64,000 bases of DNA from an uncultured Acidobacteriota bacterium (GTDB taxonomy: Bacteria; Acidobacteriota; Thermoanaerobaculia; Thermoanaerobaculales; Sulfomarinibacteraceae), in assembly GCA_963823445.1 (NCBI GenBank), contig CAWGLT010000016.1:11743-75742 (forward strand). The letters run 5' to 3'. Made by a program: the position numbers and the translations under genes. The notes beneath the pieces were generated by a model. It was given only the letters and a program-made list of their open reading frames with translations. It was not told the origin of the DNA and did not search any database. Positions 1 through 62,453 of the stretch are shown piece after piece. Position 1 is the first letter of the stretch, and the number at the start of each line of letters is the position of its first letter.

Positions 1-3000
1 TCGCGCAGGCCGGCACCCTGAACAACGTCGTGGCCGGGAACAGGATCGGAACCGATGTGAGCGGCCTCCTGGCGATCCCCAACGGAACCGCGAGCCTCTC
101 ACGCGGAGGGATCTGGCTGGGCAGCGTCGCGAATCGCATCGGCACCAACGAAGACTCGGTCTCCGACGAACTGGAGCGCAACCTGATCTCCGGTAACAAC
201 GGCACCGGGATCCTGGTCAACCTTCAAATCGACTCCGCGGCGGTCCCAAACCTGATCGCCGGCAACTACATTGGCGCCGACGCCGGCGGTCTCGCCGCCC
301 TGCCCAACACCGGCAGCGGCCTTTCGTCGGTCGTTAGCCCGACCTTCAACTACGTGATTCGCGGCAACGTGATCTCCGGCAACGGCGGTGGGGGGATCAC
401 CATCGGCGGTCTCTACCAGGCGGTCATCACCGGCAACCTGATCGGTGTTGGATCCGACGGCACCACGCCGATGGGCAACACCGGCGGGCCTGGAATCTCC
501 ATGGGAGGCAGCGACAACCAGATCGGGGGCGCGGCGCCCGGCGACGGGAACACCATCGCCAACAACAGCGCGGACGGCGTCGCCCTCCTGAGCTGGGTCC
601 GACGCACAAGCATCCGCGGCAACCGAATCTACGCCAACAGCGGTCTCGGAATCGACCTCAACGACAACGGCGTCACCCTCAACGACGCCGGCGACGGCGA
701 CACCGGCGCCAACGAGCTGCAGAACTTCCCGGTCCTCACCGGAGCGACCAGCTACGCCAACGGCGAGACCGTCATCCAGGGGACCCTCGACAGTCTGGCC
801 GGCACCACCTTCACCATCGACATCTACTCCAGCGCCGCCGCCGACGGCAGCGGCTACGGCGAAGGCGAGACCTATCACGGCGCCGCGCAGGTCACCACCG
901 ACGGCGGTGGCCTCGCGATGTTCGAGGTCACGCTTGCCGGAGTGACCATCGCGGCGGCTCGCTGGGTCGCCGCCACCGCCACCGACCCGGACGGGAACAC
1001 CTCCGAATTCTCGCTGGCGATCGGGCCGACAGGAGGTGTCCAGGACGTGCCGATCACCGGTCTTTCCGCGCTGGTCGGCACGCCGGTTTACGTCGGCACC
1101 GCCGCCGCTTTCAGCGCCGGCGTGGCGGCGGGGACCAACGTCTCCTACCAGTGGGACTTCGGCGACGGCGGCATGGACGTTGGCGCGTCTGCCCAGCACA
1201 CCTACCTCGCCGGCGGCGAGCACACCGCCACCGTGACCGCCAGCAACTCGAGCAGCAGCGGCCAGGCCAGCCTGAACGTGATCGTGATCGAACCGGCCAA
1301 CGTCAACGGCGTGGTCTGGTACGACAAGGACGAAGATGGCTTTTTCGGGCTCGGCGAATCGAGCCACCTGCATCCCGGCGGGGCGGTCGTCACGGCGACC
1401 CTGGTCCAGGACCCGCAAGTGTCGGTCAGCGACGTCAGGGACAACAACGGGTACTACCAGATTCTGGTCCCCCAGGCAGGGACCTGGGTGGTGGCGGTTG
1501 ATCGCGATCTCTGGCATGCCACCAGCCCGAACCCGTTCTCGGTGGTGGTAAGCACGGATGGCGGGGTCAGGATCGACTTCGGCATGAACCTCAATCCGTC
1601 ACCTGGCACCGGGCGCATCAACGGGCGGGCCTGGTTGGACGGCAACGGCAGCGGCTTCCCGGACTCCGGCGAAACACCGCTGTCTGGCCTGACGGTGACC
1701 CTTCGGGACGCCGGCGGCGTCCTGTCAACCAGCACGACGGATGGCGCCGGCTGGATCAACATTCCGGCGCTGGCTCCGGGCACGTATTGGGTTGACGTCG
1801 CCGCCCCGGCCGGCGTCTATCCGACCATTCGCACCAACATGGTCACAGTGGTTGCGGGTTTGGTAGTCAACTCCCACGCGCCGTTCTCTCTAGGCGGCGG
1901 CGTCAGCGGCCAGGTGAATGGACAGTCCGGCGTGGGGGTCGGCGGCGTAGCCCTGACTTTGATGCCCGACAACCTCCAAGTGACCACCGCCGCGGACGGT
2001 GGCTACAATTTCGCCGGGCTCGCCGCCGGGGACCGCACGCTGCACATCGACCCGGGGCCGAACTTCGTCACACCGGACGGTGTCGAGCAGCGGCTCGTGC
2101 CGGTGGTTCTGAACAACGGGGCGGTGGAGAACTGGTCGTTGCTGCGCAGGGGGCGGCTGATGGTGAAAGCGACCCAGGTCAACAACGGGCAGGTGCTGCC
2201 GGTGGGCAATATGTTCTTCGAGCTGCTGCAGAGCGGCACCGTGGTGGATTTTGTCATGACGGATCTCACCGGGCAGGCAGTGATCGACGGGCTGACCCCG
2301 GGAACCTACACCGCGCGCCCGTTCGCCGCGGCCGTCCTCCCAGGCTCGTTGGTCAATCCCGCCGAGCGAACCGCCACCGTCACCTACGACAGCGCCGCTA
2401 CGCTCGCCTTCAGCTTCAACCTGGCCCGTTCCGTCAGCCTGCACTGCCGCCTGGCCGGCGAGTCGCCGCCGAATGGCTTCGCCTGTCAGTACGAGATTCG
2501 CAACAGCACCGGCAGTCTGATAGACACCGGGGCGCTGACTGCAGCCAACCCGTCGACAACGCTGTGGAACCTGAATCCCGCCACGCTGGGGGTGCACCTG
2601 ATCCCCGACGTGGGCGTGCCAGGGCAGGGGTCCTGGCCCACCCACAGCCAGGTCGTGGTGTTGGATAACAGCACCCATGCCCACGTCTACTACCCGTTCA
2701 ATCCCGCGAATCCACAGACCATCAACGGCTACGCATTTTGGGACCGTTGCGTACCGGTTGGCATCCGCGGCGGGTCGGGGACGTGCAACGAAACCAACGC
2801 CGGCAGCAACAACGGTCTCACCGTCACCCTCGAGACGGCCGCCGGAGCCGTGATCGCCACGACCCAAACCAGCAACGGCACGGGGTACAACACCGGCTAT
2901 TTCGAGTTTCCCGACACGCCGATTGGTGCGTACCGGGTGGCGATCGCCCTGCCCCCCGGCTACACCGCAACAACGGCGACCCAGATCGCGGTGACCTTGG

Positions 3001-6000
3001 ACGGGGTCGCGAACTCAGAGCAGCTCGCGTTCGGCTACCAGCGGGTCGAGAACGGCCTCATCACGGGTCGGGTCTTTGTCGACATGGACAGCAACGGGCA
3101 GTACGGCGCGGCCTGGGACGACGCGCTGGCCGGGAAAGCGATCACCGTTACCACGGCAGACGGTCAACCAGTCGCCAACCTCACGACGGCGTCCGACGGG
3201 TCTTTCAGCTTGAGCCCCGTAGGAGGGGGTAGCTATCGGGTCAGCCTGGATCATGCCAATCAGACGATCACCAAGGCCGCGGCGGTCCTCGACAGCAACG
3301 TCGCGGCGGTGGTCGAGTTCCCCCTGCCGCCGCTCACCACTCGACCGCGCGTACTCGTGTTCGTAGACAGCGACAACAATGGGGTCGTGGATGAAGGCGA
3401 GCAGCGCTTGTCCGACGTCTATGTCGACCTGCTCGGTCTGCCCTGTCGCGAGACTGGCGCGCTTGTGCAAAACGGTCGCACCGACGCCGGTGGGCTGGCC
3501 GAGTTCGACACATTACCCAACGGAGACGGCACGGTATGCGCGCGGGTCAGCGCGGGTCTGGGCCCCGAGCTGTACCCGGCCAGCCCGAGCGGGGTTGTCG
3601 TGCACCGCGGGGTCGGCCAGCCGGTTCCTCTGTCGGTACTGGTTGCCGGTACGTTGCGGGTGCGACTCTTCTGGGATGCCAACGGCAACGCCCAGAAAGA
3701 CGGCGGCGAGCCGCTGGTGTCGGGCGGAACAGCGACGATCGCCGGTACGACCCAAGCGGTTGCCTCGGGGGGGACCACGTTTCTCCTGCAGCCTGGGAGC
3801 TACGACGCGATGATCGTCCCGCCCGCGGGCTACCTTCCAGGCACATCATTGCCGCTCGTCGTCGTGGTCGAAAGCGCCACGGCACAGATCCTGCCGGTTC
3901 CCCTGCGGATCGAAGGCGGAATCGGCGGCGTGGTCACGAGCCCGGATGGCGTCGGCGTCGGCTTGACCGTCGAGCTGGAGAACCTGGCAACCGGCCAGAC
4001 GCTGGCGACCACCACGACCGCGAACGCGGGCGGCGGCCTCTCCACGACCACCTTCGCCTTCAACAACCTGAACAGCGGCACCTACCGGCTGCGGCTGCCG
4101 GTTCCGCCGGCGGGCTACAAGGCGGCCAGCGAACCTCTGGTCAGCTACGTCGCCGGGGCTGCGCAAACCGAGAACCTCGCGCTGATCTACGCCGGCTCCG
4201 CCGGCGGCCGGCGCTATTTCGCCTTTTATGGGGGACCGGCGCCAGGAGACAGCCCTAGGAGGCCCGTCGCGCTGGTCGATCTCAGCAACGGCCAGGTCAT
4301 CACGCAGGAGGCGTCGCCGGATGGTGTATTCCTCTTCGACGGCCTCCAGGGCACCACTCCGTACGCGCTCACCGTGCCCAACCTCACTGGATACAAGGTC
4401 CACCACGCACCGGGTTGGTTCATGGCGGGGGCGCAGAACGTCAGCCACGACGTAGGAACCACTATGGCGGGTAACGTCTCGGGTTTCGACAGCCTCTCGG
4501 CGACCGTGTTCTACACCCAGGGGAACACCAGGATTCCGATCGGCGGCGTGCTCGGGATCTACTACGCCGCGGTGGGAGGCAGCTGCGACGTTGCCAACCC
4601 GACGGTGCGTGAAGCGGGCTACTCCGACGCCCAGGGGAAGATCTGGTTTCTCGACTACGAGGGCAGCGGGGATGGTTGCGCCCGCATCGTCGACGTGTAC
4701 GGATTCTCCGATTCGGAGCCGTATCTGATCAGCTGCGACCTGCCCGGTGCGACCTGCAGCGACGCATATGGAGGGGGCTACTCCGTTCAGCGGGACTTCG
4801 AGCTGATCCCGCTCGGGGCTTCTGATTTCCACATCAATGCGGTGACGGACCTTTCGTGGTCAGCCTTCCGCGACGACAACGGCAACCGTGAATGGGATGC
4901 GGTTGAAACTGGAATCCAGGGGGCGATGTTGACAGGTGGATCCGCGACCGCCACCAGCGGGCCGGATGGGACGGCCGTGCTCGCGGGTCTGCCCCCGGGT
5001 ATCCACAGCGCAACGATCACGCCGCCGCCCGGGTTCGAGGTCAATGGTCCGACGGAGCGGACTCTGGCGCCTTCAGGGAACAGTCTGCGCCTGCCGCCCA
5101 TCCCGCTCCGTCCGGCTGGGGTGACCACCCTGACTGCCTTCGTCGACCTGGATGGAGATGGCCTCCTCGGGACGATCGAGCACGGTCTGGGAGGCGTCGT
5201 TTTCGACCTCAACGGGCCGGCATCTGCGAGCGGAACCACGCTGCCCGACGGCCGAGCCATGCTCGCCGGGTTGCCGGACGGTGCGTACACCGTGACGGTA
5301 ACTCCACCTGCCGGGTTCGCACCCGCGGCACCGTTCGCGCTGGTCCTGCTGAATGGCGGCGCGGCCGCGGCGCCGCTGCGGCCAGCGGGCCTCGTCAGCG
5401 GCATTCTGTACGAGGACTGGGATGGGGACGGGACCCGCCGCCACGACGAGCCGGTCCACCTGTCGCCGGTTGACCTGACGCTCGACAACGGGAGCGCGAC
5501 GGTGGCCGGCCTCGCCACCGCCGGCCAGGCGATCTTCACGGGTGTTGCCTCCGACAGCTACATGCTCACTTCCCCCTTCAGCCTGGTGGAGTCCACGGCG
5601 GTTGTGGTGCCGGCGAGCGGCAGCCTGGGTGTTGGGCTGCCCATCGTTGCGCCGGGAAGGGTGCTCGGCACTGCCTGGCTGGATGCCGACCAGGATGGCG
5701 TGCGCGCGCCGTGGGAGACGCCGCTCTCTGGCGTGTCGGTGACGGTGGCAGGCCAGACGGTCACGACGGACGACGACGGTCGGTATATCGTCTTCGACCT
5801 CGACCCCGGCACCTACAATCTCACCGTCGCGCTGCCCAACGGCCTCACCGCGACGGTCGGCCAGGCGGTGGTCGGCGCAGGGAGGGGCGCGGTCGTCCCC
5901 ATCGCCGCCCAGGCCGGCGCGGACATCGTCCTGCTCGCCGTGACCGCGGATGACGGCGACGTGTCAACGGTTCCCGGCGGCACCGTCACCTACACCCTCG

Positions 6001-7734
6001 GCTACTCCAACTTCGGCACCGCCGGTGCGGCCGGGGTCACGATCACCGAGATCGGTGCCCGCGCACACCACCTTCGCCGCCGGCTCGAGCTCACCCGGAT
6101 GGGTGTGCACCCCGGACATCACGGCGGGCAGCGTCTGCACCCTGGCGGTGGGAATCGTCCCGGCCGGCGGCGTGGGCAGCGTCGACTTCGCCCTGACCGT
6201 GGTCAACCCGGTGCCGGCGGGGGTGACCGAGATCTCGAACACGGCCGCGATCGACCACGACGGCAGCGGCGGCAGCGACCCCGACCCGTCCGACAACACC
6301 GCCACCGACACCACCCCGGTCGAGGCTGTCCCCGACCTCACGGTGATCAAGACCGACGGCGGGGTTTCGACCGCAGCGGGCGCCACCCTCGCCTACACCT
6401 TGAGCTTCGCCAACCACGGCGACCAGGGCGCCACCGGGGTCGCCCTCAGCGACACGGTGCCGGCGAGCACGACCTTCGACCCGGGCTCGAGTTCGCCGGG
6501 ATGGATCTGCTCGCCGGACGGTTCGGCCGGCAGCGTCTGCACAAACCAGGTCGGGACCCTCGAGGGCGGCGGCGCGGCAGGCGCAGCGGCTTTCGCCGTC
6601 ATCATCGACAACCCGGTGCCGCCGGGAGTGACCCAGATCTTCAACACCGCCTCGGTCGCCGACGACGGAGGCAACGGCGCCGACGCCGACCCGTCCGACA
6701 ACACCGACACCATCGCCACCGACTTCGACTCCACCCCGCCCACGGTCGCCAACCTCGACTCGGTGTCGGGCACCGGCGACGGCCGACTCGAGGAATGCGA
6801 GACCGCCCATGGGATCTCGATCTCGAGCTTCGTGGTCAGCTTCAGCGAGCCGGTCCAGGATCTCCCTGGGGACACCGGACCCGACGATGTGACCAACCCG
6901 GCCAACTACCTGGTCATCGGCGCCGGGGCCGATCACGAGATCGACACCTCGGTCTGCGGCGCGGTGCTCGGCGACGATCTGGAGACGGCGATCGCGAGGG
7001 TGACCTATGACCAGGGCACGACCACCGCGATGGTCGATCTGACGCGGGCTCTCGACAGCTCGCTGTACCGGGTGCTGGCGTGCGGCTCGACCACCATCGT
7101 CGACCTCGCCGGGGTACCCCTCGACGGGGACGGCGACGGCGCCGGCGGCGACGACTTCGCCCGCACGTTCCGGGTTGATCGGAACAACCTGCTCGCCAAC
7201 GGCCACTTCGACTGCTCGATCGAGGGCTGGACGATCGACGAAACGGTCTCGTTCTCGGTGCTGTACAGCACGCTGGATGCCGACGGCTCGACCCTCTCCG
7301 GTTCGGCGGCGGTCTCGCTGCCCACCGCCACCGGAAACCCCGAGAGCTTCTCCCTCGGGCAGTGTGTGCCGATGGCGGCCGGCTCGCTCGCCGCCATGGA
7401 TCAGCTCCTGCGGGTGGACGCCGCGCCGGGGGTCACCCTCGATCACACCCTGGAGTGTGAGTTCTTCGCCGACCCGGCGTGCAGCGGCACGAGCCTGGGG
7501 ATGTCCGAGCACTCATCCGTCGTGTCCGACACGGCGGGAGTCTGGATTGTTCTGGAGCTTCTTGCCGCCGCACCTTCCGGCAGCCTCTCTGCGCGGTGTC
7601 GATCGACCCTCGCCACCAGCAACGGTTCCGCGTTCGACGCGCACATGGACCACCTCCTGCTCGAGGTTCTCCCGCTCTTTGCCGACGGGTTCGAGTCGGG
7701 CACCACCGGATCATGGTCCCACACCTTACCCTGA
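1..7734 (+). CDS. Giant surface/adhesin-like protein (parallel beta-helix, PKD, SdrD-B/Cna-B-like repeats, DUF11-like repeats, C-terminal FADGFESG tail); 5'-partial; apparent +1 frameshift near 6053
   Basis: Frame is open from the window edge. It has GNxISGN repeats, the PKD motif YQWDFGDG and repeated GxVWxDxDxDG modules. The frame switch at GAG-ATCGGTG-CCCGCG joins ORF 30..7010 to ORF 5950..7734 (VPAHTTF matches the later repeat TVPASTTF). Confidence 0.85.
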
Positions 7735-7902: not shown

Positions 7903-10900
7903 CTACTCCTCAATCACCTCCAAACGGTGCCCCGCGGAATACGCCGTAAACTCCGGCGCGTACATGCTCTGGAGCGTCGCCGGGCCGACCTTGAAGGCGC
8001 CGGCCATGTTGGCCCTGAGGCGGTACTTGAAGGTGTACTCGCCGGCCGGGAGCCACTCGAAGAAGAAGTTGGTCCCCGAGTCGCGCACCTCCTCGTACCA
8101 GCCGATCCCGAGATCCCACTTGTACTGCGAGTGGAGCGTCTCGGGCTCGAAGCCGGCGCCGCGCGGGTCTCTGAGGTGGACGTACTCGGCGGCGTGCTTG
8201 GCGCTGATCGAGAGGTGGACCTCGATCTGATCGCCGGGCGCGAGCTCCTCGCCGTCGGCGAGGGGACGCAGCACCCAACGGGCGCCGTCGTTGAACCGGC
8301 GGAAGTACTGCCGGGTCACGCCGAAGAGGTCGCCGCGCGCCTCCTCCGGGAGCTTCTCGGTGGAGAAGTGCCAGGTCGCAGAGGCAAAGGCGAAGCCCTT
8401 GGCCTCCTTCTCGACGACGATGGTCGACATGGTCTTCGGATCGACCTCGGGGCCGGGGACGATGACCCGGTTCCGGGCGCCGGTGTACTCGTCGGGCGAA
8501 AAGACCATCTCGGTTCGCCGCGGTCCGATGATGACGGTGGCGTCTTCGCGGACACCGAGGCCGTCTTCTTGTTCGAGATAGTGGACCAGGGAGGAGATGA
8601 CCTCGGCGGTGGCGCGGGTCGACTTCCAGTGGTTGAGCTTCTTGTTGAGCAGCAGCCACTGGACCATCCCGTGCCGGCGCTCGTCGGTGGGATCGAGCTC
8701 GCCCAAGACCCTGAGCGCGAAGGCGTGGGTCTCGATGGTGTCGTTGTACCAGAGCCAGGCGCGGTCCTCGGGCGCCCAGTAGGTGCCGAGATCGCGCTCG
8801 GTCTTCGCCGAGTCCATGACCGCGTCGAAGACGAGCACGGCGTCGTCGTGGCGGCCGGCCCGCTCGAGGGTCAGGGCGAGATACCCCTTGAGAAGGGGTG
8901 AGTGGTCGCGCCAGTGGCGGAAGCTGAAATCGAGCATGGTTTTGCGGTCGTCGGCGGTGAAGACCCCACCGGTCCAACTCTCGTCCGGGTAGTTGGAGAG
9001 CACGAAGTTGAGGTAGGTGACGAACTCCCAGCAGCAGTCGAGGCCCACCATCATGTTCACCATCTCGTCGAGATAGTGGCGGTGCATATAGGCCCAGGCG
9101 CGGATGACGACATCCTTGGGCGCCTCGACGCCGAACTCGAGACCCTTGGAGAAACCGTAGAGGATGTAGAGGGTCATGTAGGGCGACGGCGGCCCGCCCG
9201 GCCACCACGGGAAGGCGCCGAGGGAGGTCTGGGCCTTGACGAGCTTGGCGAGGGCGGCATCGCGCTCGGCGCGGGCGACCCGCGGGTCGAGGACCTTGAT
9301 GAGATCGTCGGCATCCTCGGTCCCGCCCCGCGAGGTCCGCAGCCAGGGCGTCTCCTCGAGGGTCATCTTGCGGTTGGGGTCGGTGGCGTCCCAGGTCTCG
9401 TAGCGGACGTCGCGTTCGGCGAGCTTGGCGGCCATCTTCGCCACCGACGGATAGTCGTCGAAGACCCCGGCGACGATCCCCGACGAGAGGAACCGGTTGA
9501 GGGTCTGCTCGGTGCACTCGTAGGGGTAGTCGACAAGGTACGGCAGGGCGCCGAGCACCGAGTAGAAGAGCTGGGCGTCGACGCTGACCACGAGCTGGTC
9601 GTGGATGAGGCTCGGATCGTCGTCGGCCGCCATGTCGGCGAAGCTGAGCTCGCGGCGGTCGCGGTCGCGCAGCGTCACGAAGCGCGACTGGGCGAGGTGC
9701 ATCCGGCCGGGCAGCACCGGCAGCGGGCGCAGCTCGCCGTCGGAGAAGGCGCCGGCGCGGGCGGTCGCCTTGAAGGCGACGGTGCCGACGCGGGCCGGGA
9801 CCCGCACCGGGAAGGCCAGATCGGCGCCGCCGCCGGGTTCGACGGTGAAGGGCACGCCGGTCGTGTCGGCGGCGGTCAGGCCGAAGAGGGGCCGGAGATC
9901 CTCGCCGGTCTCCGGATCGCGGATCTCGAAATCGAGTGCGCCGGTGAACGCATCCTCGCCGGCGTTGTTGACGACGACCTTGATCGCGGCCTCGTCGCCC
10001 TCGCGCAGGAAGCGCGGGAGATACGGCCGGACCATGAGCTCCTTGACGCTCCGGGTCGTCCGGTGGGCCGAACCGCCACGGAGGTCGCGGGTCACGGCGT
10101 GGAGCCAGACGTTCCACTCGGTGACCGAGTCGGGCACCTCGAACTCGATGACGGCGGCGCCGTCGTCGTCGAAGAGCAGATGCGGTTGCCAGAATGCGGT
10201 CTCGGAGAAGTTCGAGCGCAGCTCCATGGGGGCTTCGCCGACGCCGCCGCCGGTGGCGTCCTTGTCCTCGCCACCCTTCCCAGGAGCCACTTCAGGTGTT
10301 TGCCACTTCGACGGTCGATCTCGACTCATCGAATCGGCCCCACGGTCTTCGTCCATCGCCGCCGACGGCATGGCCTGGGCCATCATCTCGCGGCCGTCGG
10401 CCATCTCCATCTTGGCGGCGTAGAACCGCCCGCGTCGTCCCGGACCGCCGACGCCATAGCCCGAGATCTCCTTGAGACGATCGCCGCGCAGACCCGGGTA
10501 GCCCGGAAGCGGAGAGAATCCCCAGCCCCCCTGCCACACCGGCGAGGCCGTGCCGAGGCTCGACCAGGCGATCGAGACCGCCGTGCGCGTCGGATAGAGG
10601 GCGAGCGGACTCGGCGGCGAGTGCGGCGCGAAGATGTCGAGGGAGCGGTCGTACATATAGGCGAGCAGCTCGGCCGATGCCGCATCCACCACGGACTCGT
10701 CGTGGCCGCGGACGGTGACCCGGAAGGTCTCGGATGTTCCGGGCCGCAACCGGTCGCGGAAGGTCGCGAACTCCAAATCGAGCTCACGATCGGTCCACGG
10801 CACCATCACCGTGGCGCTCTGCTGCATGAGCTGGAAGTCGCGGACGAGGGTGAGGGTGACGCCGAACCCGCCGCGATCGGCCATGGTCACGGGAAGCTCG

Positions 10901-13900
10901 ATGAGCCCGCTGCGACCGGGCCCGATCTCGCGTTGTTCGAGCCGCCGCCCGTCGCGGAAGATCTCGAGGACCATCTGCTGCGCCTTGAGCCCGGTGTGGA
11001 CGAGCAGGCGCGCGGTGCCGCCGACCTCGACCGACGATTTCTCGAACCCGATCACCATCGGCAGGCTGACGGGGGTCCGGCGCTCGCCGACCACCACCAG
11101 CTGCTGCGCGGTTTCATATGTCGCACCGAAATCGTCCTTCGTGGTGTAGAGCAGGCGGTAGGCGCCGGCGGCGACCCCGGGGAGATCGATCTCGGCGGCG
11201 CCGTCGTCACCGTGGCTCAGCGTTCCGGCGGCGACCTCGGGGCCCGCGGGCCAGGCGGCCATCACCGCCCGGTGATCGTAGGAGGTGTCCCACCGCGCGC
11301 GGAGTCCGTCGCCCTCGCTGGCGTAGTCCTCGTAACCCGGTCTGGAAGGCCGGGTCAGATCCGCCGGCATCACCGCGTCGTCCGGTTGCTCGAGGCGCAC
11401 CAGCCGCCACGCGGCGGAGCCGGCGCGCGGGCTGCCGTCGAGATCGCTGCGGACGACGTTGAAGGTCGCGGGCTCGTCCTGGGTGAGAAAACCGAGATCC
11501 GAGGCGATGGCGGCCTCGACCGCGACAAAACCGAGGCGGAAGCTGCGGTCGGCCGAGCGGGTCTCGCCGCCCTCGTCGGTGACGTCCACCGACAGCCGGT
11601 AGCGGTAGGTCACGCCGTCGGCGGCCTCGCGCTCGTCGGCTGCGGGGGTGAAGGCGATTTCGAACTCCCCTTCGTCATCGAGCCCGCTCTCACCCGAGGC
11701 GACGATCTGGCTCTCGCTCTGCGGCGATGGATACCACCAGCCCCACCACCAGGGGTAGACCGGCTCCCGGGTCACCCGCCAGCGGACATCGCCGGTGACC
11801 ACCGGGAGGCCGAAGTAGTACTGGACGCTGCCGGCCAGAACCGCCGGCCGGTTGAGGCGAAGGGCCTCGGGGGGGTCGCCGATGGTGACCTCGAAGGTCG
11901 GCCGCTTGTACTCCTCGACCCGCACCGCCGTGTCGCCGCCGAGGGAGGTCTCGCAGCCGCCACTGACCGAGCAGCCGCCCGGCGGGAATCTCGAAGCTCG
12001 CGGAGGCCGAGCCGAAGGCGTTGGTCTCGAGGGTGGTCTCGGCCACGATTTCGTAGTTGGCGTCCATGAGGCTCACCGAGATCGCGGTCCCGGGCAGGGT
12101 CCGGTACTCGATGTCCTCGCCGCCGCCGCGGTAGGCCACGACCTTGAAGTGGAGCTCCTGCTGCGGCCGGTAGACCGAGCGATCGGTGTAGACGAGCGCG
12201 GCGGTGTGGGCGGAGCGCTCGCTCTCTGAGTACTGCCAGAGCCCCCTGAGGTCGTACGCCAGGTTCTCGCCGTCCCGGGCGAGGAGGAAGTGGCGTTCGC
12301 GTCTCCAACCGCCCGGGCTCAACTTCACCCGGCCGTCGGGGCCGGTGGTCCGGGTCGCCACCGCCCGGTGGCCGTTGCGCCAGTCGAACCGGAAGAGCTC
12401 GACGGTGACGCCGCCGAGGGCCTGCCCGCTCGAGCCCGAGCGCGCGGTGATCTCGTAGCCGCCGTCGGCCTGCTCGGTCACCAGCACGAGATCGGTGAGG
12501 AGGAAGTTGCACGCCAGGATGAGGTTCTGGTTCTCGGAAAAATCGCGCCGCGGCGAAGCGACGATGAGATAGGCGCCGGGCGAGGAGATCGGCGGCACCG
12601 AGTAGCTGAGGTGGGAGCGATAGTCCGGGCTCGGCGGCAGGATGTGGGTCCACTCCGCGACGGGCTCGGACGCGGCCATGATCTCGGGGACCTCGCGGTG
12701 CCCCGGCAGCAGCTGGTGGTCCTCGGCCGAGGTGATGGCGTCGATGAGATCGTAGGGATAGGCGCGAAAGTACAGGGTGTCGAGGTTCGCCGAGTCGATC
12801 TGGATCGATCTTCGGCCCTCGCCATCGGCGGTCATGACCTGGATCGCGTAGCTCGGCGCCTCGATGGCCGCGACCGTGTGATTGCAGCGCTCTCCGCCGA
12901 TGGACTTGGGGTGGCGGTCGCGGCCGGCGACGGCGGCGGCGCGGGCGCGGATGAGCGCATCCGGGGCGTCCTCGGCGCGGATGAGCTCGGCGAGGAGCGA
13001 CTGCCCCATGGACCACCACTCGTAGCTCGGGTCGAAGCCCGCCTGGGTCGTCTCGAGGCTCTCCCGGATGGCCAGCCGATCGTGCCGGTTGGAAAACGCG
13101 GCGTTGAAGCGCCGCAGACGCTCGAGCCGGGCTTCGAGGGCGGCCTCGGGCCGAGCCGACGACGCGTGCCACGCCTCGAGATCGTCGAGGACGGCGCCGA
13201 TCTTGACCAGCGGGTGGAGTTCGGGATCGGCGAGATCGAGGACGGCGGATTCGGCGGGGCTGCCGGCCAGGAGGGCCGCGAAGTCGATTCTGAACACGTC
13301 GTTGCTCTGGTCCGGCCGCCACAGCGAGGTGTCGGCGAGGAGCTCGGTCCAGAGATAGCTCACCGCGTCGCGCAGGGTGCCGCGGATCCGCGGCGGGAAG
13401 TCGTTCTGGTCGATGTACCGGGCGAGCGCGCCGATGCCTTCGTCGCCCCAGCTCCCGCGTCTCGCCCAGAGCTCACCGAAGGCGCGGTTGGACTCCTCGA
13501 CGATCTGATCGACATCCCACTTCTTGAGATCGAGCTCGGCCGTGGTCTCCACCCGCTCGCGTTGGCGGATCTCCCACGAGTAGGCGTGGACATAGGTGAC
13601 GAGGGAGTGGGCGTAGTAGAGATCGAGCACCGCCCGCGAGACCTCGTCGTCGGGCCACGGCTCGTCCTTGAGGAAGCGCACGGCGGTCTCGTAGCCGTGC
13701 AGCGCGCTGCGCAGCTTGACCTGCTCGACGATGGCGCGGGTCCACTCCGCGGCGTCGTCGTTCGCCGCCGCGCGGACGCGGATGGCCTCGACGAGATCGA
13801 ACGCCGCCTCGTACTTCTGTTCGTTCTGCAGACGTTGAACTTCGTCCCAGTTCAGCTTGACCTCCTCGGAGACCGTTTGACCCGCGGGGGCCTCCCCATT

Positions 13901-14011
13901 GTCCCCCGGCCCGGCCGTGACCTGGAGACCGACGACGCCGAATGCCGCGGCGACGAAGAAGAGAACCATGATGATCGGAGCCGAGCGACGGGGGGTGTGC
14001 ATGTTCTGCAT
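7903..14011 (-). CDS. Bacterial alpha-2-macroglobulin (split by apparent +1 frameshift near 11950)
   Basis: Contains YTDRSVYRP (MG2), RVEEYKRPTFEV, RSNFSETAFW, thioester motif YPYECTEQ and C-terminal SMYAPEF. ORFs 11690..14011 and 7903..11925 join if one base is removed. Confidence 0.92.
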
Positions 14012-53437: not shown

Positions 53438-53477
53438 CCCAATCTGAACACCACTCGCGCGCGACCTCATCGACGCG

Positions 53478-55599
53478 TCAGTAGGTCCACCCGGGATGGT
53501 TCTTCCCGTGGCACCTCAGGGTGCATTTGCCGCTGTGCGTCCCGGTGGACAGGTACTCCAGCGTCCCGTTGAACGCAGTGACGACCGAGGTGTCGAAGTT
53601 GATGAGCTTCGGGTTGTGCCGAGGCGTGTGGGTCGTGGCAGACGTTGCACGGCGTGTCTTCGCCGTTGATGTGCTTGTTGTGGTCGTCGAAGCTGGCGCC
53701 GCTGCTGATGCTGGTCCATGAGTGGCACTTGAAACACATGGCGAAGTTCGCCGTGTTGAAATTCGTGCCGTCTGCAGTGACGTAACGTCGCTCCAGCAGA
53801 TGGGGCCAATCCGAACCGTGCGGACCGTTGGCGCCCGAACCACCCGCCGCCGGACCGTCGTCGTTGTTGTGGCAGGTCGTGCAGCTCATGAGGCTGGTCT
53901 CGTCCCAGCCGTTGGCGGTGATGAGTGACGGAACGGACGCGTTGGTGCCCTGCACCGCAACCGGGTGGTACGACGCCTTGGAGCCGTCAAACTCGATCCG
54001 GACGTTGGACTCCGGGAACTGCCGCGGTGTCGGTGGCGACGGGAGATTGGGGCTGTCGGCGTGGCAGCGGAAACAGAGCTCGTACTCGTACGACGCCGGC
54101 CGCACCGCATTGCCCGCCAGATTGACGCCCTGAACCCCCGCGAGCGGTCCCGACGCCGGTCTCGGCGCGGTCGCCGGACCGGGCAGGCTGACCCGGGCCA
54201 CCGCCTCGTGCGGGCCGTGGCAGTCTTCGCACTCGACGTGACGGGTCGTCACGACGGCGGACTCACCCGGTTGGTGGACCTCCGAGGCCAACGACAATGG
54301 GTGGGCCGATGATTTCTGAAAATCGGTCCGCACATCGGCGGTCGCCGGACTGCCATCGTGGCAGGTAAGACAGAGGTTCTCTTCCAGATCCACCTGGAGC
54401 CGAGGATAGTCGCGATCGGTGTCGGCGGTATCGGGCCATCCGTGCGCCTGGTGGCAGCCGGCGCAAGAAGCCGTCTGCGACGAATCCGTGATGGCCGGAA
54501 AGGTCGATCCGTATTGACCACCGGGCCACAGCGCCCCGGTTGAACCGGAGTCGAAATGTGCCGCAGGGGTTGCGGTGTCGGCCAGGGTGTGGCACTCGAT
54601 GCACAGCCCGACACGATCCGCGCTGCGCAGCAACGAACCATCGTCCGCCGGCGAATCGTGGAGCTGATGGCAGGTCATGCAGGCGATTCGATCGTTCGGA
54701 TCGAGGGGCAGGGTCGTGGGCGGCTGGGTGCCCCCCGATGCGGGCACGGTGACGTCGACGGGGTGCGACCCTTCGTGAGCGAACTGGACGACACGGAGGC
54801 CGTGGCAGTCGTTGCACATGGCGCCCTCGTCGTTGTCGATGCGCATGAAGTGGCGGCCTTCGCCGGTTCCCGGCCCACCGTAAGGGGGCGCCGACGCATC
54901 GAAGGGCGCTTTGGCCTGATTGTGCTCGTTGTGGCAGGTCGAGCACATGGCCCGGCCGTCCTCGAGCCGGCCCGACATCTCCGGGGCGGCCGGTGGGAGG
55001 ATCTCCGTCCTGACATAGATCCTCCAGACGTCGCCGGCCACGAAAGACGGCGGCGCATCGGCGTCGAAGAAGCTCACGGTGACGCCTCCGTCGAGAGGAA
55101 CATCAACGCCGGTGGTGAGCCCGGCTCCGCCGCCGCCGAGGGTGTCGTTCCAGGAAAAAGCCGCGGCTCCCACATCTCCGGTCGAGGTCACCGTCAGGGT
55201 GTAGGTCTTGGGGAACCTGCCGGTGAACGCTCCACCGGGCGCGACCTCGCCCGGCGAGGTGTTCCCTGCGTTCGGTTGGATATGTCCCGCCGCCCCTGCA
55301 TCCCAGCGGTGCGAGGTGCCCGACGGAGTCGTCCCCGAGGGCAGCCCCGGACCGGGCAGCGCCTGGTCGGCATCGGCAAATGGGAAGCCCCCCGCCATTC
55401 CGCCGACCACATGGCAGCTCAGACAGAGATTGCCGTTGCCGCCCACGGTGGTGAGGCTTCCACCGGGGGAGCTGTGGGTCGTGTGACAGCTCGAACAGTC
55501 GATGGCCTGCGAAGCATCGTGGGCCGGGTCCAGGCCGTGGGCGGCCGGAACGACCAGAAGCAGCGCCGCCGGGAGGACGAGTCGCCCGTCCCGGAGCAT
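53478..55599 (-). CDS. Large multiheme cytochrome c (13 CxxCH + 1 Cx3CH); apparent +1 frameshift near 53620; start may be 55635 or 55641
   Basis: Heme motifs counted in the translation, with a signal peptide. The shifted frame supplies NPKLINF...CTLRCHGKNH, matching the end of the neighbouring 8-heme paralog. Confidence 0.9.
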
Positions 55600-55609
55600 C
55601 CGCCGCAGG

Positions 55610-56608
55610 CTACGGGATCGATTCAGACCAGGCATGGACATCTCCAGACTCGAACCCGTCGTTGAAAATCGACCCACCCGGCGGCGGGATCGTGAAATCG
55701 TCGAGACCGAAGACCTCGAGTCGACCACTGTTCACCGACGAGACGAAGAGTCGATTGGTGGTGTCGATGACCATTCCGAACGGCGTCCGAAACTGCCCGG
55801 GTCGATCACCGAGACTGCCGATGAACGCCAACTCGGCTCCGGCTCCGTCGAAGACCTTGACGTGCCCCTGGAACGCATCGGCGACGTACACCCTGCCGAC
55901 CCTGTCCCCCACGAGGCCCTGAATCCTGCCGAAGTTCCGATTGCCCCCGCCCTGAGCCCCGAAACAGCGGAGAAAGAGCCCGCTGCGGTCGAAGACCTGA
56001 ACCCGGTCGTTGTTCTGGTCTCCGACAAAGACCTCGCCGTCGGGGCTGACCCACACGGCGGACGGGAAATCGAACTCGCCCGGACCGGTTCCCGACCCAC
56101 CGAAGGAGCGGACCAGTTGGCCGTCGGGACCGTAGACCTTGATGAGGTCCGCCCCGCCGTCGGCGACAAAGACGAGGCCGAGCCCGGGATCCGGGTCGAC
56201 CGCCATATCGGTTACCGCGACAAACTCGCCGGCGCCGGCGCCGAGGGCGCCTGCCGGCTGCCACAGCGGATCGAAGATGTTCACCCGCCCGGTCGAATCA
56301 TCGCTGACGAGAATATTGTCGAAGGCATCCACCGCAACCGCCACCGGGACGCCGAGATCGTGGTGGACCGCGACCACGCCGCCATGGACATCCCGGACGA
56401 CCACCGCGCCCCTCGTCGGCTCGGCAACGTAGATCCTGTCGCCCGAATCCACCGCCAGACGCGCCGGCGCCCGCTGGCCGTGGGGTTCGGAACTCAGGAA
56501 CTCGACATCGGGAGGCGGCAGAACCGGCGTCCCGCCCCAGGCGCAGACTTGCGCGGACGCTGTTCCCGGCGGACCGAGGACGACCGCCGCGAGGACGATG
56601 AGCATCAT
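55610..56608 (-). CDS. NHL-repeat beta-propeller protein with C-terminal IFNDGFESG tail
   Basis: GSGTGPGEFDFP, NDRVQVFD and PGQFRTPFGM; signal peptide; start uncertain. Confidence 0.88.
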   Translation of the reverse strand: MMLIVLAAVVLGPPGTASAQVCAWGGTPVLPPPDVEFLSSEPHGQRAPARLAVDSGDRIYVAEPTRGAVVVRDVHGGVVAVHHDLGVPVAVAVDAFDNILVSDDSTGRVNIFDPLWQPAGALGAGAGEFVAVTDMAVDPDPGLGLVFVADGGADLIKVYGPDGQLVRSFGGSGTGPGEFDFPSAVWVSPDGEVFVGDQNNDRVQVFDRSGLFLRCFGAQGGGNRNFGRIQGLVGDRVGRVYVADAFQGHVKVFDGAGAELAFIGSLGDRPGQFRTPFGMVIDTTNRLFVSSVNSGRLEVFGLDDFTIPPPGGSIFNDGFESGDVHAWSESIP

Positions 56609-56855
56609 CAGACAGAGAGCTCCATCGACCCCGGCGGCGCCAGCTCGATGTGCGCTCGCGAAGCCCGGTCCGCCTTCAACCGCTGATGAGCGTCTCACCC
56701 CGACATCCCTTCTCCAACGCCGATCGAAGCATTGATCGATAACGGTTCCGAATAACGATCTTCGCGAAAGCGCCACCCGCTTTCAGTGCCGCGGATCACC
56801 AACCACCTCGAACCCGCGCGGGTCACGGCGCCGTAACGAGTGGAGTCGCAGGGCC

Positions 56856-57986
56856 TCACTGTCGCCTGCTTTCGGGTCTGTCGTCCGGCCGCGGCGCCGC
56901 CTGGGTGCCTGGAGGATGGAGGCCAAGGCCTCCGTCGCGCTGGGGATCGGCGAACCTGGGTCGACCTTCGGCGTTGAACATCGGCCCGTAACCGAGGGGG
57001 TCGTGATCGACACCGTGGCAGGTCAGATAGCAGCCCCCCATCCCCGCCGCCTCGGAGCTGTATTCGAGCCGCCCCGAGCTCGAGGCCAGCACGCCGGTGA
57101 TCGCGGTGGGTTCGTTGAAGCGGATGAGGGCCCGCCCGGCGGTCGCGCCGTGCGCATCGTGGCACAGGACGCACGCAGAGCGTTGCTCGACGACGTGCAG
57201 CCGGTGATAGGGAAAGGGATCGGAATCGAGGACGATCCTTCGATCGTGGCACTGGTAGCACAGAGCGTAGGAGGCTTCGGATTCCGGCTGTCCGTCCTGC
57301 AGGGAGTAATCGGCGCCGAGCAGCCCCGGCACCCGGCTCCCGTGCGGTCCGCGCGCACCTCGGAGATCATCGTTGGTGTGGCAGTCGGAACAGTTGATGA
57401 GGGAATCCGACGTCAGCGGAGGCAACAGGCTCGGGACCTCGCCGACACCGATGGCGAGAACCGGGTGGAACGAGGGATTCCTCGAATCGAAGAGCAGACC
57501 GATGTCATGGGGATCCGAGACCATGGCCGATCGGGTTCCATGGCACGAGAGGCAGAGATCCGCCTCGCTGGCAAAGCCCCGTTTCGGAGAGGGCTTCTGC
57601 CGTCCGAGGCCGAAGTCGGTTCCGGCCGCCCCCGGGAGTCGGCCGACGCCATGGACACTGTGGCAGTCGACGCATCGCGTTCCGCGGTGGATCACCGGTT
57701 TGACCATCTCGACGCGGATGTCCGCCGGATCGGCGCCGGAGTCCATCCCGAGAGCTTCACGACGGCCGGGCTCGGCGGCTCCCGCCTGGTGGCACTCGAT
57801 GCACATGAGGTCGCTCTCGGTTTTCAACATGGGTGTTCGGGCGGCCCCGTGACCCCGATGGCAGGGCATACAGTCTTCGGCGAGCTTGCCGGGCTCGAAG
57901 TGTTTGCCGAGATCAACGGCTGAAGCGCCCGGGGCGATCAGGAGGATGACCGCCGCGGCCGTTCTCAGGAATGACACGCGATGCAT
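56856..57986 (-). CDS. Octaheme cytochrome c (7 CxxCH + 1 Cx3CH)
   Basis: Signal peptide; CMPCH, CIECH, CVDCH, CLSCH, CSDCH, CYQCH, CVLCH and CYLTCH. Confidence 0.9.
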   Translation of the reverse strand: MHRVSFLRTAAAVILLIAPGASAVDLGKHFEPGKLAEDCMPCHRGHGAARTPMLKTESDLMCIECHQAGAAEPGRREALGMDSGADPADIRVEMVKPVIHRGTRCVDCHSVHGVGRLPGAAGTDFGLGRQKPSPKRGFASEADLCLSCHGTRSAMVSDPHDIGLLFDSRNPSFHPVLAIGVGEVPSLLPPLTSDSLINCSDCHTNDDLRGARGPHGSRVPGLLGADYSLQDGQPESEASYALCYQCHDRRIVLDSDPFPYHRLHVVEQRSACVLCHDAHGATAGRALIRFNEPTAITGVLASSSGRLEYSSEAAGMGGCYLTCHGVDHDPLGYGPMFNAEGRPRFADPQRDGGLGLHPPGTQAAPRPDDRPESRRQ

Positions 57987-58618
57987 AGCTCCCCCGGTTT
58001 CGCGGTGAGAAGGAAATTGCCGTAAGGATCGCGATGGGGATCGTGGCAGGTCGTGCACTGGATCCGATTCTCCTTGTCGAGCTTCGCGACGGGGTGGGTG
58101 CGCATCTCGGACAGCGATCTCAGAGGCACATCGCCCTTGGAGTTGTTGGTCGTGACCAGGTGGTCCGTCACCGTGAAGGAGACCGGGTGATCACCGCTGA
58201 GATCGCGGCCGAGATTCGACTCCGAGGTCGACGGCATGGTCGTGATCCCACCCTGCATCGCGATCCGACCCGACGAGACGGTCGATCCGAGCGCAATCGT
58301 TCCGTCGTGGCAGGACAGGCAGAGCTTCGACGAACCGTTGGGCTGCGGCGCTTCCCCCACGGAACCATAGGCGTCCATGGTCTCGCTCCAGTACATCTGG
58401 TAGCTGCCGCCCGGGTCCTCCCGGTTCCACAACGGCGCCTGGAAAGCGGCATTGTGGGTCGTGTGGCAGAAGACGCAGATCCTGGTCTCGGACACGGCCC
58501 TGACGGCGCCCGGACCGGTCACCGAGAGATTGTGCGCGGTGTCGCGGACGCTGTCCTGGGCCGAGGCCGGAAAAGCCAGCCCGATCGCCACCACCAGGGC
58601 AATTGATAGACGTCTCAT
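57965..58618 (-). CDS. Tetraheme cytochrome c, OmcE-like (copy 2)
   Basis: HNLS, ICVFCHTTHN, PLWNR, CLSCHDG, NLGRDLSGDHP, CTTCHDPH and LCIACH; ATGA coupling to the upstream NHL gene. Confidence 0.88.
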   Translation of the reverse strand: MRRLSIALVVAIGLAFPASAQDSVRDTAHNLSVTGPGAVRAVSETRICVFCHTTHNAAFQAPLWNREDPGGSYQMYWSETMDAYGSVGEAPQPNGSSKLCLSCHDGTIALGSTVSSGRIAMQGGITTMPSTSESNLGRDLSGDHPVSFTVTDHLVTTNNSKGDVPLRSLSEMRTHPVAKLDKENRIQCTTCHDPHRDPYGNFLLTAKPGELCIACHS

Positions 58619-59622: not shown

Positions 59623-61379
59623 CTTCGGTAGTCTCCGGCTCTGATGTTGAACAATCGTCTCACGCCGACCCAGATCCTCCTGTAGCTGCGCCGTTCGAGC
59701 CCCGCCTCTTCGGTGCGCTGCTCTCGGACCCGCGCATAGAAGGAAAGCTTGGCGTAGTTGAACCGCATTCCGAGCTCGGCGAACTCATACGTCCCGATAT
59801 GATCGAAGATCCTGCGTTCCTCGGAACGTACGAAACCGTCGAAGATCAGCCAGTAGGTCGGCCCCCAGCTGATACTCGCCTGCCACACATCGGTCAGGGT
59901 CGGGACCTCGCTTCCGGTCATCTCGAAGCGGTCGGCGGACGCTCCGATGGTCACCGTCCCGAGCGCGATGTTGAGCTGGGCGCGGGCGACATCCTCCTCG
60001 ATCTCGAAACCCCGGTCCACGCGCACCCGGTTGCGATAATCCAAATCGAGCGAGAGCGCGGTCCGCCGGGTCGGCCGGACCTCGAAGATGAGCCTTCCGC
60101 GGGTGCGCCGCCGGTCCAAACCGGCGAGGAACGAGCTCCCGATGGACGGTTCTCCGGTGCTGGAGTCCGGGATCGAAAGCTGGTTGTCGAAGTACTCGAC
60201 CTCGAAGGTGACGCTCGAGCGCGGGAGCTGGTAGCGGACCGACCCGAAAACCAACGATCCGAAGGCCGACTCCTGCTCGAGGCTCTCGGGGTCGGCCCGG
60301 AGATAGGTCACCCGCGGGTAGAGCGACAGCCACCAGCGGCCGTACTGCTTGCCCCATCGCACGCCGAGGCCCGCACGCGGTTGGCTGAGCCGCAGGCCGT
60401 CTCCGAACTCGTTGCTGAGGTAGCCCACTTCGCCCTCGAGAAAGGTCGATCGACCGAGGGGCGCCACCACGCTTCCCGAGGCGTTACCCGTGATGATCTC
60501 TTCGACCGGATCGGACTCGAACCTGACCACCCTCAGATCCGCCCGCAGGTCCCAGAAACCGAGCTGACTGTAGCGATGGCGCAGCTGGTTTCTGAAGAGG
60601 TAGTTCGTCGTCCACGGCGAAAACTCGCCGTGCTCCTGAGCGGAACGATAGATGTTGCCGATGAGATCGGTGTGCCAGTAGACCCGCCCGGTCCGGTTGA
60701 CGTCGATGTCGAGGCGACCGCTGCCGATCTCCTGCTGCAGACCGCCGCCGAAGAGATCGTTCTCCTTCCAAAGGAGTTGGAGAAGGGCATCCACCTTGCC
60801 GACCTCGGCCTGGGTCGAAAGCTCGCTCCACGTGATGTCGTCGTCGCGCAGGGTCTCCGGCTGATCCGCGTTGAAGCTCTGCTCCCAGTGCCGAAGATTG
60901 AGACGGAACCACTCACCGCCGAGGGCTCGGAGGCCGTACCGTTGATAGTCACGCACCCCGTCGACGATCGCACCCTGTTGGAGACCCGTGACATCGGTTC
61001 CCTGGCGACCCGCACCGACTTCGAACGAGATCGCACGGTTGTTGAAGAACCGCAGCGACCCGTCGTAGTAGGTGTCGTCGACCTTGTTGTCCTGCTGACC
61101 GGAGATCGTCTGGTTCGACAGGGTCTTTGCGATACTGGCATCGAAGGTCATGAACCTCGGATCGACGAGGTGCCCGGCGACGGCGGCCCAGAGAACGGTC
61201 TGGAGATTCGACCTGGTTGCCGACTCGCCGGCGACCTCCTGCGAGTCGCTCAGGTACTCAGCCGAGAGACCCAGGGTGAACATCGCCCCGCTCGAGGCCC
61301 AGGCGGACCCGGCGATGCCCCACAGGCAGATCGCAGCGCAAAGCCGGCGGGCTCCGGGGTTCAGAATCTCTCGGCGCAT
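59619..61379 (-). CDS. Putative outer-membrane beta-barrel (porin-cytochrome-type conduit or secretion channel)
   Basis: Signal peptide; alternating amphipathic beta-strands rich in aromatic residues; ends IWVGVRRLF; context within the cytochrome operon. Confidence 0.7.
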   Translation of the reverse strand: MRREILNPGARRLCAAICLWGIAGSAWASSGAMFTLGLSAEYLSDSQEVAGESATRSNLQTVLWAAVAGHLVDPRFMTFDASIAKTLSNQTISGQQDNKVDDTYYDGSLRFFNNRAISFEVGAGRQGTDVTGLQQGAIVDGVRDYQRYGLRALGGEWFRLNLRHWEQSFNADQPETLRDDDITWSELSTQAEVGKVDALLQLLWKENDLFGGGLQQEIGSGRLDIDVNRTGRVYWHTDLIGNIYRSAQEHGEFSPWTTNYLFRNQLRHRYSQLGFWDLRADLRVVRFESDPVEEIITGNASGSVVAPLGRSTFLEGEVGYLSNEFGDGLRLSQPRAGLGVRWGKQYGRWWLSLYPRVTYLRADPESLEQESAFGSLVFGSVRYQLPRSSVTFEVEYFDNQLSIPDSSTGEPSIGSSFLAGLDRRRTRGRLIFEVRPTRRTALSLDLDYRNRVRVDRGFEIEEDVARAQLNIALGTVTIGASADRFEMTGSEVPTLTDVWQASISWGPTYWLIFDGFVRSEERRIFDHIGTYEFAELGMRFNYAKLSFYARVREQRTEEAGLERRSYRRIWVGVRRLFNIRAGDYRR

Positions 61380-62440
61380 TCCCGGACCTCGATCTCCGCG
61401 CCGGCAAGCAACCCCTCTTCGAATTCATCGAGCCGGCCTTGCCGCTTCTCCCTCGTGATCCGCTCCTCCACCGCACCGCGGACGGCGGCGAGCTCGATCG
61501 GTTGGGACGGACGCGTGCTGATCACTTGCAGGACATGATACCCATAGATCGATTTCACCGGATCGATCACCTCTCCGACCTCCGCCGAGAAGACCGCCTC
61601 GTCGATGGCGGGCAGGAGCGATCCCCGGTGGACAAAGCCCATGTCTCCGACCTCATCGTGGAACCGAGGGGGGAGGCTCTCGAGATCGGTTTTCCCGACG
61701 ACGAGCAGCGAGGCGTCCCCTTGGCGGGCTTCTTCGGCAAGCCGGCGCGATCTGCCCTCGGCCTCCCGCCACGCTTCCCCGGTCGCCGACGGGGGTACGT
61801 GAACGAGAATGTGGGTCACGTGGCGCGCCTCCGGGGTCACGTAGTCGCCGCTGTGGATGATGAAATAGACCTCGACCTCGGTGTCGGTTGGCGGGGCGAC
61901 GCTGGAAACCACGAGCTCGTCGACGGCGTCGGCCACCGCGTCCCGGCGGAAGGCCAGCCGGAAGGCCTCCTCCGAGATACCCTTGGTTTCGAGGGCGGCG
62001 CGGTATTGCTTCTCGCTGGTGAATCGCGCCCGCACTTCCTGCCATGCCGCCGCCTCGGCTGCTTCATCGACATCGACGGGGTTCTCATGCGCCCACTGCC
62101 GTTTGAGCTCCCTCAGCACCAACTCGCCGAGGGCCTCGCACCTGAGTTCGGTCTTGCGCTCCTGGGAGATCTGCCGGTGGTAGCTCCCAGCCGAAATCCG
62201 CCCGGCCAGTTCGCGATCGAGCTCCCATGCTTCGAGAGCCCGGCCGTTGACGGTCGCGGCCGGGTCGGCCGGCGCGGCCGATTCCGCAAACGGCGTCACC
62301 CCGGGCGCGACCGAAACGAAGCTCAGGACCGCGCCGAGGATGAGCCTGCCGAGCGCACCTCGCCGCTTGCCGGGAGAGACCCGGGGAAAAAAGACACGGG
62401 AGACGAGGTGATCGTCTCCCGCGTCGCGAGCGTGCGTCAT
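61361..62440 (-). CDS. SurA/PpiC-type peptidyl-prolyl isomerase chaperone
   Basis: AATVNG, HILV and GDMGFVHRGSLLPAIDEAVF...GYHVLQV. Confidence 0.9.
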   Translation of the reverse strand: MTHARDAGDDHLVSRVFFPRVSPGKRRGALGRLILGAVLSFVSVAPGVTPFAESAAPADPAATVNGRALEAWELDRELAGRISAGSYHRQISQERKTELRCEALGELVLRELKRQWAHENPVDVDEAAEAAAWQEVRARFTSEKQYRAALETKGISEEAFRLAFRRDAVADAVDELVVSSVAPPTDTEVEVYFIIHSGDYVTPEARHVTHILVHVPPSATGEAWREAEGRSRRLAEEARQGDASLLVVGKTDLESLPPRFHDEVGDMGFVHRGSLLPAIDEAVFSAEVGEVIDPVKSIYGYHVLQVISTRPSQPIELAAVRGAVEERITREKRQGRLDEFEEGLLAGAEIEVRECAERF

Positions 62441-62453
62441 CAAGGGAATCGGA

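Follow-up and report, generated by a model that had tools for sequence, protein, structure and literature searches.

Two unrelated exported proteins encoded in the window, by which we mean the whole 64,000-nucleotide stretch of DNA analyzed here, end in the same kind of short peptide, and this raises the question of what the peptide does for the proteins that carry it. The original prediction was that this tail is a lineage-specific sorting or anchoring signal, perhaps one that attaches to a receptor by beta-strand addition. The features of the window on which the question turns were as follows.

1..7734, + strand: 3' part of a giant adhesin-like gene with beta-helix, PKD, SdrD_B-like repeats, DUF11, and a CBM-like last domain
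6052..6057, + strand: +1 frameshift site that joins ORF 30-7010 to ORF 5950-7734
7675..7734, + strand: tail LFADGFESGTTGSWSHTLP-stop, the end of the giant exported adhesin-like protein and one of 121 profile matches
55610..56776, - strand: exported passenger with an NHL beta-propeller and an uncertain start codon, located between two multiheme cytochrome genes
55610..55669, - strand: tail IFNDGFESGDVHAWSESIP-stop, directly after a PPPGGS linker

The peptide predicted at the end of the giant adhesin was found at 7675..7734, but it ended ORF 5950-7734, which is out of frame with the giant ORF 30-7010, with a +1 frameshift at about position 6054. One related contig (748 nt, about 95% alike, depth 4.5) had one base fewer at about 6054; therefore, the frameshift is probably an assembly error, and the two ORFs probably encode one exported protein of about 2,800 aa. 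The start of the adhesin-like gene, with a signal peptide, was located about 670 nt upstream of the window edge. Many frameshift breaks were found across the source genome of the window, that of an uncultured Thermoanaerobaculia acidobacterium (G000; 5.23 Mb, 91% complete), and several tails were on short ORF fragments. In the case of the NHL propeller, the tail was in the predicted place, but the linker ahead of it read PPPGGS rather than PPPGG. The best NCBIfam match of this passenger was ScyF, a PEP-CTERM family, and it was below the cut-off. The two genes flanking the propeller gene encoded paired-CXXCH multiheme cytochromes (window 53467-58058, - strand). Elsewhere in the window, a SurA-like PPIase was encoded at 61361-62443, and a bacterial alpha-2-macroglobulin spanned two overlapping ORFs at 7903-14011 (- strand), probably because of another assembly frameshift. 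An Rfam scan of the window yielded no match.

Copies of the tail were abundant in the source genome. The pattern F.DGFE.G....W occurred 82 times in 104,842 six-frame ORFs, and it was mostly terminal: 77 of the 82 copies were within 30 aa of the stop, and 58 had exactly 18 residues from the first F to the end. A profile built from 95 seed tails and used with a threshold of at least 12 bits produced 121 matches, 112 of which were C-terminal, and 0 matches in the reversed ORFs that served as the control. The conserved unit was about 20 aa long, with the consensus [LIV]-F-x-D-[GD]-F-E-[ST]-G-[DTN]-T-x-x-W-S-x-x-x-P-stop. The F, F, E, and W residues were invariant in 95/95 seeds; this was partly due to the selecting pattern, although the W was not selected for. 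These results confirmed that the tail is shared and has a common spacing. They also agreed with the prediction that it lacks a TM helix and a basic end, as 0/110 tails showed a hydrophobic run of 19 aa among their final 45 residues and only 7 of about 115 C-terminal copies had a K or R within the last five residues.

The predicted C-terminal position held for most copies, but a few were located directly behind a signal peptide, between domains, or ahead of a TM anchor, which indicated that a free C-terminus was not required. Thus, the portable nature of the proposed signal stood, but the non-terminal copies argued for a non-covalent docking motif and not for a processed sorting signal. In one exported c-type cytochrome-like protein (G000:C18:34575-35642, + strand), the tail was followed by a TM helix and a basic end, which makes this protein a membrane-anchored carrier of the tag. 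Tails were also clustered along the genome, with 54/124 on contigs C7, C13, and C23 and about 0.8 Mb without a tail gene on contigs C14, C15, C20, and C21.

The passengers, as we call the proteins that carry the tail, were indeed unrelated and mostly exported. A Pfam match at 1e-5 was obtained for 21 of the 33 passengers scanned, and the matches belonged to exported types of differing families: subtilases, LVIVD, FG-GAP, Kelch, LRR, beta-helix, CAP, LamG, and IgGFc-binding. In a crude test, a signal peptide was detected in 45/59 long tail ORFs versus 715/1,772 other ORFs. The tail itself, as well as the acceptors and intact domains described below, matched no Pfam or NCBIfam model; PDB sequence searches with the acceptor, tail, and neighbor alignments returned chance matches only. 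A search of the ESM Atlas with the tail as a query returned unnamed clusters of 23-27 aa (0.91 and 0.88).

Judging from the alignments, the tail is the detached first 20 or so residues of an uncatalogued jelly-roll domain. The tail mapped to columns 2-18 of the alignment in 184 intact copies of this domain. We also identified 58 stand-alone signal-peptide proteins made of the domain minus its tail segment, which we refer to as acceptors. In the acceptors, the tail columns were 0-3% occupied and the mature chain started at about column 23, the next strand; thus, columns 1-21 were vacant in the 58 stand-alone proteins and filled by the motif in the 184 intact copies (alignment A7 was used here after removal of a single mis-cut row). 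Similarly, the motif was absent from 52 of the 53 homologues that were 106-389 aa long, and nearly all of these consisted of a signal peptide plus the acceptor. The acceptor is thus a candidate for the receptor suggested in the original prediction and is consistent with beta-strand addition. The tail is likely read by the rest of its parent domain and not by a translocon or a sortase.

The domain family was large, with 2,817 representatives at an E value of ≤0.001. Among the best 146 new representatives, the strict motif was present just upstream of 141/244 domain copies, and the remaining copies were mostly preceded by a degenerate motif or were signal-peptide stand-alones. The domain was within 40 aa of the C-terminus in 80/123 multi-domain proteins. 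Collection scans with alignment A1 recovered 3 and 5 loci, and a third-round homologue search recovered 8 proteins. Two states of the same passenger were found in propellers: those of genome G129 carried an intact domain and were 44-57% identical to the tail-only propeller of the source genome, with coinciding junctions. At the sequence level, the tail thus evidently arose when an intact domain was truncated.

In the source genome, the acceptor gene (G000:C9:~83180-83813, minus strand) encoded a signal peptide and the domain without the first strand, and the assembly contained at least three frameshifts in this gene when it was judged against an intact same-genus orthologue (L074:1507-2073, minus strand). 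The reads of four sequencing runs, all from one sample, left this gene uncovered. Acceptor orthologues were intact and single-copy in 4/4 tail-rich genomes and were not found in the tail-less genome G141. A variant was observed in L031:1498-2460 (G129) and P0054, which are truncated acceptors with an insertion of about 90 aa behind the second strand. The acceptor gene in G129 followed a tail-bearing gene, and the same genome also contained intact domains, a possible intermediate state.

The modeled intact domain had the beta-jelly-roll fold of PL20 and Cip1. It aligned with the PL20 lyase 2ZZJ (Z 19.4, rmsd 2.6, 200 residues aligned) and with Cip1 3ZYP (Z 16.1, the alignment beginning with residue 1 of the chain on residue 41 of the model), and in both alignments the first residue fell onto model residues 39-41, with the motif included. 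Foldseek agreed on a ConA-like jelly roll (E 3e-8). Neurotoxin lectin-like domains also appeared among the fold matches and were set aside as generic jelly-roll matches with 7-13% identity. The pLDDT of the intact model was 83.6, with 59 (residues 41-50) and 80 (residues 51-60) in the motif region. The acceptor modeled alone had a pLDDT of 93.7, and this confident model suggests that the acceptor may fold without the tail.

The structural account of Cip1 (PMC3764139) places strand 1 at Ile2-Asp4, followed by a loop at Phe6-Trp15, and lists the Asp5 carbonyl, Glu7, a loop at 32-41, and the last-strand Asp206 as Ca2+ ligands; the X122 paper (PMC10916295) describes the same kind of calcium site. 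The candidate calcium ligands of the domain were conserved (E in 99% and D in 100%), and the ends of the aligned range were in register with Cip1. In stand-alone acceptors, the Cip1-equivalent Asp and residues V51, P56, E59, G179, S199, and R201 were kept in about 100% of sequences. R65, E135, and W154 were conserved in intact domains but had decayed in stand-alone acceptors (R65 was kept in 86% of intact rows versus 4% of stand-alone rows), and glycan binding by the acceptor was therefore weakly supported. In intact domains, tail positions 17-18 covaried with the YVxD strand (z 6.0, rank 12; z 4.4, rank 30). This conservation pattern is what a socket retained in the acceptors would look like.

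We also examined how the tail and the domain were distributed. In keeping with the predicted lineage specificity, the tail was patchy and lineage-restricted: the strict pattern was found in 16/301 genomes of the phylum, and at least 26 copies were found in only five, all of them Thermoanaerobaculia. Among 251 genomes of this class, 49 had at least seven motifs (up to 145 per genome) and 193 had none. The domain was present in 44/49 genomes with at least seven motifs (36/39 of those with at least 20), in 5/9 genomes with one to six motifs, and in 7/193 genomes with no motif. The class genomes are non-independent kin, so these counts overstate the co-occurrence. No domain match was obtained in 5/49 tail-bearing genomes, all of which were fragmented assemblies (180-740 contigs, 91-95% complete). 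When 31 of the 44 domain-positive genomes were inspected, the truncated form was found in 31/31; in G519 and G523, the match coordinates indicated an intact-type domain. One stand-alone acceptor (L096:7986-8645) was in a 2.0-Mb genome without a strict tail (G301), where it may use a variant tag. A relaxed tail pattern did not exceed the control in G301, and this pattern was uninformative in G301, G474, G311, G273, and G141.

Most acceptors were single-domain proteins with no recognizable anchor. Some, though, were fused to a known anchoring module: SLH domains in G267 and G414 (Pfam 5e-12 and 1e-11), SLH-type repeats in G347 and G399, and a dockerin in G311. Moreover, tails and SLH motifs tended to exclude each other. 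A crude SLH-type motif was present at least twice in 0/39 tail-rich genomes; among the 42 genomes with at least three SLH-type motifs, 38 were without a tail, two had one tail, and the remaining two were those with acceptor-SLH fusions. No SLH domain was found in the source genome, and the controls were matched. Family f4 genomes (e.g., G276, G310, and G437) had up to 171 SLH-type motifs each, which is unusually large for a diderm class.

In 22 genomes, the neighborhood of the acceptor gene contained sulfatase-fold genes (14/22), glycosyltransferases (13/22), and Wzm/Wzt-like ABC genes (5-6/22); no secretion genes were recurrent beside the acceptor. A strong terminator followed 20/28 acceptor genes versus 12/92 tail genes, a weak hint that the acceptor gene is stand-alone and well expressed. 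Acceptor genes and tail genes showed no clear difference in codon bias. Together, the fusions, the SLH exclusion, and the glycan-locus context point to retention of the passengers at the cell envelope.

In three genomes, the acceptor gene was immediately preceded, on its own strand, by genes for an ECF sigma factor and then an anti-sigma factor (G117, L101:7601-8935; G362, L110:812-1974; G366, L105:10204-11589). The C-termini of these anti-sigma factors beyond the TM helix contained a weak look-alike of the tail, which was clear in G117 and faint in G362 and G366; even the G117 look-alike scored below the threshold of the tail profile. These three cases suggest that the look-alike tail of the anti-sigma factor may sense free acceptor. 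A homologous sigma/anti-sigma pair in the source genome (contig C2) had no tail-like end.

That tail and acceptor bind in some way is, in our view, quite probable. A more specific model, which we consider the best supported and reasonably likely, is that calcium-assisted fold complementation docks about 120 exported passengers on one envelope adaptor, with retention. In this model, the first strand and the calcium loop of a lectin-type jelly roll have been split off as the tail, which would bind the separately encoded, secreted acceptor and so complete the fold in trans. By analogy with Cip1, Ca2+ would bridge the pair through the tail G/D carbonyl and Glu on one side and an acceptor loop and the invariant Asp on the other. 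The acceptor would be abundant, and it would be held on the surface or on wall glycan, either directly or via a fused SLH or dockerin module. The split point, the stand-alone acceptors, the co-occurrence, the retained candidate half-site, the SLH and dockerin fusions, and the glycan-locus context were each seen in the sequence comparisons.

Four other explanations were weighed against this model. The one that fared best, and which we still regard as unlikely, is that the acceptor acts in the periplasm as an escort or export adaptor: it would deliver passengers to a secretin-based system and then let them go, and the tail would serve as a secretion signal instead of an anchor. The prevalence of single-domain acceptors without an anchor and the two secretin genes in the genome suit this idea. 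So do the tail-like peptides that inner-membrane proteins carry on their outward-facing part (the anti-sigma factors and the cytochrome with a tail, TM helix, and basic end), which place binding in the periplasm. However, secretins were equally present in the tail-less genomes G141 and G276, the genes that recurred beside the acceptor were glycan genes and not secretion genes, and both the SLH/dockerin fusions and the exclusion with SLH motifs pointed to retention.

It is also conceivable, but improbable, that another partner reads the tail (a membrane kinase, an outer-membrane protein, or an S-layer protein) and that the truncated domain serves some separate purpose or persists as a relic inherited together with the tail. 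The imperfect co-occurrence of tail and domain would be explained in this way, but it would not be expected that the tail and the acceptor are exact complements of one domain or that conservation in the acceptor is strongest at the socket residues.

The idea of a processed sorting signal, cleaved by a sortase-like enzyme that puts a lipid or glycan in its place, is very doubtful. The fixed distance to the stop (58/82), the presence of the tail behind choice-of-anchor Q domains, and the presence of one exosortase-family gene (G000:C4:148593-149024, - strand) are in line with it. The absence of a TM helix (0/110), the scarcity of basic ends (7 of about 115 C-terminal copies), the N-terminal and internal copies, and the lack of a recurrent sortase-like enzyme near the acceptor are not. 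Lastly, the proposal that the tail is a functionless stump of a truncated anchor domain, or folds back onto its own protein, fits its evident origin by truncation but is hardly credible given the invariant F, F, E, and W in 95/95 seeds on unrelated folds (partly an effect of the selecting pattern, the W being unselected), the N-terminal placements, and the up to 145 copies per genome.

The docking model was also compared with known systems. In cellulosomes, many exported proteins carry dockerin, a short portable module that pairs non-covalently with cohesin on adaptor proteins, which in turn may bear SLH domains; calcium is involved. The system described here is similar in having a portable tag, an adaptor that is sometimes SLH-fused, and a predicted role for calcium. 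In contrast to dockerin-cohesin, to which it showed no homology, the proposed tag is no folded EF-hand domain but 20 residues taken from the fold of the adaptor itself, the adaptor has a single domain with no multi-site scaffoldin seen, and the passengers represent the general exoproteome. The EF-hand pair of dockerins had no Pfam match on the tails, and the one dockerin-like protein in the genome was without a tail. Cohesin had no Pfam match on the acceptors, and the intact domain modeled as a ConA-like jelly roll.

In donor-strand complementation (chaperone-usher and type V pili) and in SpyTag/SpyCatcher, a peptide completes a domain that is missing one strand. Unlike these systems, the pair described here would have a jelly-roll rather than an Ig-like fold and a predicted Ca2+ bridge, with no polymer and no isopeptide bond, and unlike engineered split domains, it is natural and present on about 100 unrelated proteins. 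Portable C-terminal signals include PEP-CTERM/exosortase, GlyGly-CTERM/rhombosortase, LPXTG/sortase, and the T9SS CTD. The tail resembles these signals in its C-terminal position and in the kinds of passengers (choice-of-anchor Q, subtilases, and propellers), but it has no TM helix or basic end, forms no 70-80 aa Ig-like domain, and also occurs at N-terminal and internal positions. TIGR04183 (T9SS CTD) had no match at the tails. The PEP-CTERM search, which had no positive control, was blank, and the single exosortase-family match was not linked to the tails or the acceptor. The search for SprA/Sov (PF14349) gave no match in the genome, but no control genome matched either.

Closer in structure are Cip1, PL20, and X122 (3ZYP, 2ZZJ, and 8Q28), which the intact domain resembles in its modeled fold (Z 16-19). 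According to the Cip1 account, an N-terminal F/I-x-D-D/G-F-E...W segment supplies calcium ligands in these proteins (PMC3764139). However, the identity was 11-20%, there was no sequence-level Pfam or PDB match, these proteins are unsplit, and a shared fold does not show function. For the gingipain motifs ABM1 and ABM2, which are likewise short, a role in keeping processed domains together within surface complexes has been proposed (PMC5266723), but they are confined to a few polyproteins and bore no visible sequence relation to the tail. Overall, the arrangement resembles dockerin-cohesin docking combined with donor-strand logic, and the defining features of the families tested failed or could not be matched.

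No description of the tail or of a tail-acceptor system was found in the literature searched, the scope of which excluded subscription journals and bioRxiv supplements. The parts and the mechanism appear unrelated to every family tested, and their newness depends on the binding that we infer. The fullest version of our model is a natural, proteome-wide tag and catcher in which a split surface-anchoring lectin domain provides one abundant acceptor, encoded in the variable surface-glycan locus, and a calcium-locked 20-residue tag on about 100 exported proteins; in some lineages, an anti-sigma factor with a weakened tag copy would sense free acceptor and adjust acceptor transcription via an ECF sigma factor. 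We offer this version only tentatively. If the docking model is true, it would explain an abundant unannotated motif found in 2-3% of genes in many Thermoanaerobaculia and would represent a new mode of protein display in the diderm envelope, replacing SLH domains lineage by lineage. It would also provide a traceable route from an intact anchor domain to a tag plus adaptor, with both states within one class, and the 20-mer and the 190-aa domain could serve as a calcium-switchable affinity tag.

Two further observations were made near the acceptor gene. A conserved exported protein of about 230 aa with a degenerate tail (L112:3408-4166; G000:C9:95404-96165, minus strand; homologues in alignment A8) was located downstream of a cluster encoding an ECF sigma factor, a zf-HC2 anti-sigma factor, and a LiaI-like TM protein in 6-7 genomes of the family. 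The label "cohesin-like" was dropped for this neighbor because neither Pfam nor the PDB yielded a match to it. Upstream of the acceptor gene in the source genome, an element of about 50 nt (L002:8005-8056; G000:C9) matched many unrelated contigs and is likely an intergenic repeat.
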